DNA of 37,642 nucleotides from a virus. The stretch lies in the UHGV virus genome UHGV-0029174. The stretch is one strand, 5' to 3'. A program made the translations under genes and the position numbers. This document shows positions 19,364 through 19,400 of this stretch, one piece after another; the first letter of the stretch is position 1, and every line of letters starts with the position of its first letter. The notes under the pieces were generated by a model that did not search any database, was not told the DNA's origin, and was given only the letters and a program-made list of their open reading frames with translations.

Positions 19364-19400
19364 GTTTACGCGTTGCTACGCGAAAAATAGAAAAATTCGT
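19364..19400 (-). promoter_or_regulatory. conserved element upstream of portal (copy 2 of 7141..7178)
   Basis: About 33 of 35 bp identical to the element upstream of M. Confidence 0.4.

Follow-up and report, generated by a model that had tools for sequence, protein, structure and literature searches.

A repeated element preceding the portal and tail M genes of mEpimmI-type coliphages as a candidate mRNA leader element

The 37,642-nt stretch of the virus genome UHGV-0029174 which was analysed in this study (hereafter the window) is approximately 90% identical to the mEpimmI coliphages (mEp021 group: mEp021, mEp010/013/044/515/554 and MagusPhagus). These phages were described as temperate human gut phages that are Nus-dependent and non-lambdoid (PMC11893012). 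All structural genes of the window are located on the minus strand, and a short element is found twice on this strand, once between the genes encoding the large terminase subunit and the portal protein (copy A) and once upstream of the tail-tip gene M (copy B; Table 1). The plus-strand cassette upstream of copy B stands between M and the tape-measure gene, which is adjoined by the terminator hairpin of the cassette. Being located behind both the opposite-strand cassette and the terminator hairpin, M therefore plausibly needs a promoter of its own. Altogether three plus-strand cassettes (5798-6676, 7282-8129 and approximately 10668-11262) are inserted in the late tail-gene operon, each of them bounded by a bidirectional terminator-like hairpin (6539-6556, 8134-8156 and 11268-11285, respectively). 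The genes L and M and the tape-measure gene each follow one of the cassettes, and each of these genes has promoter-like hexamers, those before L being TTGTTA-18-TACAAT.

Table 1 Coordinates of the two copies of the element and of the neighbouring features in the window
Feature	Position	Strand	Details
Terminase large subunit gene	19421..20908	−	Stop codon 19423-19421, upstream of the copy A spacer
Copy A, full repeated unit	19355..19398	−	GAATTTTTCTATTTTTCGCGTAGCAACGCGTAAACATGTATTCA; inside the 78-nt spacer from the TerL stop to the portal start
Copy A core hairpin	19369..19382	−	CGCGU 19382-19378, loop AGCA 19377-19374, ACGCG 19373-19369
Portal gene (PF06381)	17972..19342	−	SD AGGAG 19355-19351, ATG 19342-19340
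Opposite-strand cassette	7282..8129	+	Carries the gene for a ParE-like toxin (7443-7709); bidirectional terminator hairpin 8134-8156 at its end
TATAAT, putative -10 of the M promoter	7186..7191	−	Invariant, exactly 19 nt before the T-run in 45/45 loci
Copy B, full repeated unit	7134..7176	−	GAATTTCTCATTTTTCGCGTAGCAGCGCGTAAAGATGTATGCA; divergent intergenic region between tail gene M and the opposite-strand cassette
Copy B extended hairpin	7140..7168	−	12 pairs, one bulged U
Tail-tip gene M (PF05939 Phage_min_tail)	6757..7110	−	SD GGGGG 7119-7115

The position of copy A relative to the coding sequence depends on the start codon of the portal gene. This is almost certainly the ATG at 19342, which is preceded by the SD AGGAG, and not the in-frame ATG at 19363, which has no SD and is given as the start both in the list of open reading frames and in the GenBank record of mEp021. 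The gene calls of the collection, which yield a portal protein of 456 aa, agree with the ATG at 19342. The distance from the end of the core to the start codon is then 22 nt for the portal gene and 33 nt for M (ATG 7110). As regards existing annotations, the portal CDS in the mEp021 record (L001 18360; window 19340-19363) starts at an SD-less ATG within the flank of the element, and the RefSeq/PGAP label of the portal protein (PF06381/DUF1073) in E. coli RefSeq entries (H24-H35), 'anti-CBASS protein Acb1 family protein', is apparently an artefact of naming.

Aligned on the gene strand (19398-19355 with 7176-7134), the two copies are approximately 89% identical with one 1-nt gap. The 24-nt core, which reads TTTACGCGYTGCTACGCGAAAAAT on the plus strand, was found by a pattern search of the window at 7144-7167 and 19365-19388. 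No third match was present even when up to 3 mismatches were allowed, and the number of matches expected by chance was 0 (100 dinucleotide shuffles). The repeat search paired 7134-7167 with 19355-19388 (family D16, 91%), and a profile built from all variants matched the minus strand at 7176-7134 and 19396-19355 with E values of about 1e-14 to 1e-16, the next best match having E = 0.8. According to the limits of the profile matches, the repeated unit is therefore approximately 44 nt long, and the similarity of the flanks beyond this unit was not significant in the local-alignment shuffle test (p = 0.33 upstream and p = 0.16 downstream). The core consensus on the gene strand is TTTTT-CGCGT-AGCA-RCGCG-TAAA in the window and T5-CGCGT-AGNN-RCGCG-TAAA over the variants. 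The initial annotation of the window had reported a near-identical element before the portal gene and M; both copies were indeed found there, each with the two ACGCG repeats and each followed on the gene strand by ATGTAT (19363-19358 and 7142-7137). The 34-nt strings compared there are highly similar as reported, with an identity of about 91% instead of the 94% given.

A search for further copies in a complete genome, as had been suggested, found exactly two of them in mEp021, at the same two places, and neither third nor diverged copies were detected in the window or in the whole mEp021 genome (patterns with 3 mismatches and an nhmmer profile). Scanning IMG/VR with exact patterns provided 85 stretches, all of them from mEpimmI-like contigs of approximately 54 kb, and only two contexts were seen, with the element before the portal gene in 51 and before M in 39. 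The sets of IMG/VR loci anchored on the proteins, which are free of pattern bias, contained the element at 50/50 portal loci and 45/45 M loci, always in the orientation of the gene. When every transition in the stem was allowed in a scan of metagenomes, about 47 stretches were obtained, only in the portal and M contexts, plus one chance match. Only 5 chance matches, in unrelated MAGs, were found among the GTDB species representatives, and the copy A region is present in 35 of the 5,426 complete E. coli genomes. The element is absent from the relatives with approximately 61% identical portal proteins, that is, Citrobacter and Enterobacter prophages, an unassigned metagenome contig and the Klebsiella phage Kp4856-1. 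The relatives of this kind from Citrobacter, Enterobacter and Klebsiella have either closely joined terL and portal genes, a small ORF or a spacer of unrelated sequence instead, and they therefore add nothing on covariation.

A mobile or dispersed repeat (MITE, REP-like) was ruled out by the presence of two copies per genome in fixed places and a fixed orientation in IMG/VR, metagenomes and GenBank phages. As the distribution is fixed in one clade and the relatives lack the element, it is a fixed innovation of the single mEpimmI clade and not a mobile repeat. The initial view of a functional-looking element tied to gene position and distinct from mobile repeats was thus borne out in about 140 independent contigs, with two copies per genome, always before the portal gene and M. 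In one IMG/VR phage (L076 4035-4508; also L151), an HNH_3-type homing endonuclease gene lies between copy B and M; the inserted gene uses the M leader, and M gains an N-terminal extension.

The block of 59 nt which comprises copy A and reaches up to the portal ATG has a nucleotide diversity of 0.019 in the 50 portal loci, compared with 0.22 in the 32 spacer columns directly upstream and 0.26 at the third codon positions of the portal gene. Copy A is clearly under purifying selection. The spacer upstream of the conserved block tolerates an insertion of approximately 70 nt in about 15/50 portal loci (e.g. L113 1353-1425). This insertion, which follows the TerL stop and precedes the conserved portion of the terL-portal spacer, holds the perfect palindrome CTTCGAAAAATTTTCGAAG. 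In copy B, the T-run, CGCGTAG, CGCGTAAA and the upstream TATAAT at its exact distance of 19 nt are invariant or nearly so, in contrast to the bases that separate them. In the loop, UAG on the 5' side hardly changes and the 3' bases are variable; in terms of DNA, CGCGTA is invariant in both repeats and the intervening 3-4 nt vary. Some loop variants are common to both copies: AGCAA is found in both copies of one contig and AGAAG in copy A of another (loci L109 and L173/L127), and in the window, where the loops correspond to 7153-7156 and 19374-19377, copy B has the intermediate AGCAG. This sharing suggests that gene conversion may occasionally take place between the copies, which are 12 kb apart.

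The element pairs best as sense RNA. In the fold predicted, a 5-bp G+C stem with a tetraloop is extended by U-A and U.G pairs across a bulged U. The core of copy A stands between U5 (19387-19383) and UAAA (19368-19365), and its extended imperfect stem spans 19389-19361; the core of copy B consists of CGCGU (7161-7157), the loop AGCA (7156-7153) and GCGCG (7152-7148). Over the 36 distinct haplotypes, 93% of the stem cells are paired in sense RNA and 82% in antisense RNA, the Watson-Crick pairs only amounting to 80%. The mean free energy of the copy B hairpin is -10.1 kcal/mol in the sense and -5.7 kcal/mol in the antisense orientation, the sense one being the more stable in 23/23 haplotypes. 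The folding of the copy A haplotypes gave a weak hairpin, no better in the sense than in the antisense RNA. Only two substitutions were found anywhere in the core stem, both of them C->U on the gene strand and both resulting in G.U pairs (L179/L182; L181), which are too few for significance (p about 0.25), and the fifth core pair is either U-A or U.G. No compensatory covariation was observed in this shallow clade: double changes occur only at one outermost pair and the shuffle control was not exceeded, so that the structure is conserved only because the sequence is conserved. The loops seen are AGCA, AGAA, AGAG, AGCU and AGCG, with one GGAA variant (L159). The prediction of RNA structure envisaged in the initial annotation produced for copy B of the window a hairpin of -11.8 kcal/mol (z = -3.9), whereas that of copy A is weak (-6.2 kcal/mol, z = -1.2) and covariation does not add to it.

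Neither copy has the anatomy of a promoter. A σ70 promoter would need -35 and -10 hexamers with a spacing of 16-18 nt, the bases A at -11 and T at -7, and a transcript that takes in the SD of the gene. A promoter scan of the region 5000-23000 gave no site in or over either copy, and the best hexamers that could be aligned by hand within the element matched in only 3/6 and 3/6 positions. In copy A the gap between UAAA and the SD is only 13 nt, so that the mRNA would begin at or past the SD if the -10 were located at the hairpin or behind it. The intra-operon promoter among the initial candidates is therefore not supported for the element itself, which has no acceptable -35/-10 pair; the one good promoter signal, the invariant TATAAT, lies outside and upstream of copy B only. 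This -10 predicts a start of the M transcript near 7179, which would place the hairpin at about +12 to +40. Since copy B is downstream of the TATAAT, it would be transcribed as a leader. Upstream of copy A there is a CACAAT in a position similar to that of the TATAAT of copy B, with CACAAC or CACAAA in its place in 13/50 loci, and an extension of the A/B homology to a shared -10 was not significant. Copy B resembles the moron-type or intra-operon σ70 promoters of lambdoid late regions in its divergent intergenic location, with promoter-like hexamers on both strands and an inserted opposite-strand cassette next to it. In contrast to those promoters, the TATAAT is not part of the repeated unit, and copy A has either none or a degenerate one.

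Four explanations compete with an action of the element in the mRNA leader. That the element itself is an internal late promoter for the portal gene and M, probably together with an activator or a modified RNA polymerase, seems quite unlikely to us. It can be argued that M certainly needs a promoter, being behind the opposite-strand cassette, that by our own reading the T-rich stretch before the hairpin resembles an UP element and that the CACAAT in the copy A spacer is placed like the TATAAT of copy B. These points are opposed by the empty consensus scan and the poor hand alignments, by the start at or past the portal SD which a -10 at or after the hairpin would impose, by the degeneracy of the CACAAT and the replacement of its -35 region by the 70-nt insertion in many contigs, and by the end of the A/B similarity before the -10 region. 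In addition, the Pfam search revealed no gene for a phage sigma factor or a late activator besides the lambda-type Q (PF03589). A DNA binding site for a regulator encoded by the host or the phage, which would serve as an operator or roadblock or activate a weak promoter, is rather unlikely. The candidate site would be the near-palindrome TTTnCGCG-N6-CGCGnAAA, which is at the same time a direct repeat CGCGTA-N4-CGCGTA with its halves one helical turn apart. Strict sequence conservation without covariation and the invariance of both CGCGTA repeats around 3-4 variable nucleotides are what such a site would display, and its position at about +14 to +36 of the M TATAAT promoter would suit a downstream operator. 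The asymmetry of the element (T5 on one side and TAAA on the other; TAG kept and its symmetric partner not), with the same orientation to the gene in every copy, does not agree with this, nor do the substitutions observed, which keep RNA wobble pairs and break the DNA symmetry. No further full or half sites were found in regulatory positions of the window or mEp021, a roadblock between terL and the portal gene is without obvious logic, and the lambda-type Q is the only Pfam candidate for a late regulator. As to the binding site for a regulator which had been among the initial candidates, recognition by a factor, on either RNA or DNA, is favoured by the strict conservation without covariation.

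An antitermination RNA of the nut (boxA/boxB) or put type, reloading or reinforcing a termination-resistant polymerase before the long structural stretches, is a very unlikely alternative, although the mEpimmI group possesses the N-like protein Gp17, three nut sites and a lambda-type Q (PMC11893012). The hairpin is of boxB size, the variant of locus L159 has a GGAA loop, and UCUCAUU before copy B resembles the nutR1 boxA GCUCAUU. However, the boxB loops of the group are of the GNRA type (GCGA in nutL, the boxB of which is CGCU-GCGA-AGCG, GGAAG in nutR1 and GAAA in nutR2), whereas the loops AGCA, AGAA and AGAG of the element are without the first G. Judging by the lambda N-boxB interaction, this G should be required. 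The boxA-like stretch, which directly abuts the hairpin with no spacer, varies: most B copies have TCTCATT, other B copies TCTTA, TATCA or TCTAA, and copy A has TTCTATT. The late genes, moreover, are already covered by Q. The element was rejected as a nut site, having neither a conserved boxA (GCTCTTTAA or GCTCATTAA) a few nucleotides before boxB nor a GNRA-like loop. What it shares with lambda-type boxB, including mEp021 nutL, nutR1 and nutR2, is the 4-5 bp G+C stem closed by a U pair, the purine-rich loop of 4-6 nt and the location in transcribed leader RNA of a Nus-dependent phage; it differs by lying in the late region and not downstream of early promoters and by the lack of a properly spaced conserved boxA. 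Least probable of all appears a functionless duplicate of a junction sequence, the copies of which gene conversion and recombination between phages would keep alike. The shared loop variants (A with AGAAG, B with AGCAA and the window B with AGCAG) suggest that such conversion may occur. The diversity is nevertheless about 12-fold below that of the adjacent spacer and the synonymous sites (approximately 35 haplotypes), the element is kept in 95/95 loci, and a pair of neutral direct repeats flanking essential genes at a distance of 12 kb would be disadvantageous.

We favour an action of the element in the mRNA leader, and not as a promoter, i.e. as a clade-specific 5'-leader RNA which affects stability, processing or translation, and we put the probability of this at roughly 40%. 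The sequence arguments for it are the identical orientation with respect to the genes, the location 22-33 nt before the start codons, the position of copy B after the TATAAT and the substitutions compatible with the sense RNA. On this explanation, the element would be a cis element of the untranslated portal and M leaders in mEpimmI-type temperate coliphages, and the core U5-[CGCGU-AGNN-RCGCG]-UAAA would fold in the sense RNA and work after transcription. At M, the σ70-type promoter with the TATAAT 19 nt upstream would start the transcript, the first approximately 45 nt of which would be the element with the hairpin near the 5' end. At the portal gene, the element would be a part of the polycistronic late transcript after terL, where no promoter would be needed, and cleavage in the U-rich tract could bring the same hairpin to a new 5' end. 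The hairpin would then set the stability and/or translation of the downstream message, either alone or via a sequence-specific factor. The action at the RNA level, the transcription start, the cleavage and the effects on stability or translation are all steps which we infer from these features. The RNA processing or leader site among the candidates of the initial annotation is accordingly favoured, albeit by indirect support, through the sense pairing, the place in the 5'-UTR and the orientation to the gene.

A near-invariant stem and UAG combined with a variable 3' loop are not expected of a purely structural stabiliser and fit sequence-specific recognition. This pattern also fits the DNA direct repeat CGCGTA-N4-CGCGTA. 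In view of the strict conservation, recognition by a sequence-specific factor, on RNA or possibly on DNA, is likely. A bolder and rather improbable extension would be a post-transcriptional regulon, in which a putative sequence-specific RNA-binding factor, phage- or host-encoded, would act on the U5-CGCGUAG...CGCGUAAA hairpin and co-ordinate the low-copy assembly initiators portal (head) and M (tail tip); alternatively, the hairpin might be a new polymerase-modifying cis-RNA in the Q-dependent late operon split by the antisense cassettes.

Stabilising stem-loops in 5' leaders and processed phage leaders are exemplified by the 5' hairpin of E. coli ompA and the leader of T7 gene 10, the latter having the order hairpin, AU-rich stretch and SD. 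The element resembles them in the order of a small sense hairpin, an AU-rich stretch and a strong SD within the 5'-UTR and in its predicted place near the 5' end of the M message. In contrast to them, the hairpin of copy A is weak, the sequence itself is conserved, one element is common to two genes and the 5' end is a predicted one. A further parallel is provided by Mu Com, a phage translational activator which binds the stem-loop in the mom 5' leader. Here as well, a late gene has a conserved leader hairpin which may be the target of a trans-acting protein; unlike in the Com/mom system, no Com-like zinc-finger protein was found beside the element and the hairpin gives no sign of masking the SD. 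Literature searches yielded neither an account of the element, which the mEpimmI genome paper does not mention, nor late-transcription data on mEpimmI phages. These phages are common in the human gut and little studied, and their late operon is unusual in that it is interrupted by three opposite-strand cassettes with terminators. The shared candidate leader element together with the putative dedicated TATAAT promoter of M offers a testable handle on late expression across the cassettes and bears on how the initiator proteins of head and tail are kept in balance. Should the element be no more than a stabilising leader hairpin, it would be useful as an annotation and perhaps as an expression part; binding by a specific factor would make it a new case of co-regulation at the post-transcriptional level in a temperate phage.

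Several other identities of the element were rejected. It is not an intrinsic terminator, as neither strand has the T-run where a terminator would need it: the gene strand reads U5, hairpin and UAAA and the other strand UUUA, hairpin and A5, and the terminator scan called neither copy. With terminators and REP-type hairpins it shares an intergenic G+C hairpin with a T-run; it differs from them in that the T-run precedes the hairpin on the gene strand, with an A-run after it on the other, and in the presence of only two copies in fixed positions. Rfam 15 gave no gathering-level match in the window, and the sensitive local scans gave no matches or matches at chance level (E >= 1.9, far below the gathering scores). 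An RfaH ops-like sequence was rejected by eye, only GTAGC being in common, and an antisense promoter or a plus-strand small RNA was rejected in view of the lack of adequate hexamers and of a terminator. A pac or terminase binding site is unlikely because the second copy lies 12 kb away in the same orientation. The AUG after the hairpin is not conserved in the B variants, as would be needed for a uORF, and an operator of the neighbouring toxin-antitoxin cassette was dismissed since copy A has no such neighbour.

Apart from the element, the window contains other repeats and motifs. The motif GCCATTTTGTWW (ACAAAATGGC on the other strand) has 12 matches compared with 1.6 expected, among them 5601-5612, 7198-7209, 10544-10555, 26750-26761 and 30724-30735 on the minus strand and 26776-26787 and 30789-30800 on the plus strand (also L001 at approximately 35350). 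Palindromic pairs of it are formed at 10536-10589 and 26750-26787. On the plus strand it adjoins the -35-like TTCACA or TTCACT of the opposite-strand cassettes, and in mEp021 it adjoins TTGACT-17-TATATT upstream of gp16/gp17. The motif could be an operator or an UP-like promoter motif common to the early and cassette promoters. Just downstream of a copy of the GCCATTTTGT motif, a nutR2-like site was recognized at approximately 30706-30670 on the minus strand, with the boxA TGCTCTTTAA followed by a boxB-like hairpin CGCU-GAAA-UGCG, in agreement with the published position of mEp021 nutR2. The palindrome GATCTAGATC with two Dam sites (10526-10535) lies between the putative promoter and the start codon of the tape-measure gene, and the L leader has palindromes in an analogous position at about 5575-5545 (TACAATAT/ATATTGTA and ATCGCGAT). 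The first 800 nt of the window (1-800) hold long diverged direct repeats (families D1-D4, units of 74-177 nt, 354/462-nt spacing), which are probably inside the tail-fibre J gene. Finally, a perfect 21-nt repeat, TAAGAGGTGAATTATGGCCCG on the gene strand, is located at 15791-15811 and 21901-21921 and supplies an identical SD, start codon and first codons to the head decoration gene (15388-15798) and the small terminase gene (21408-21908).
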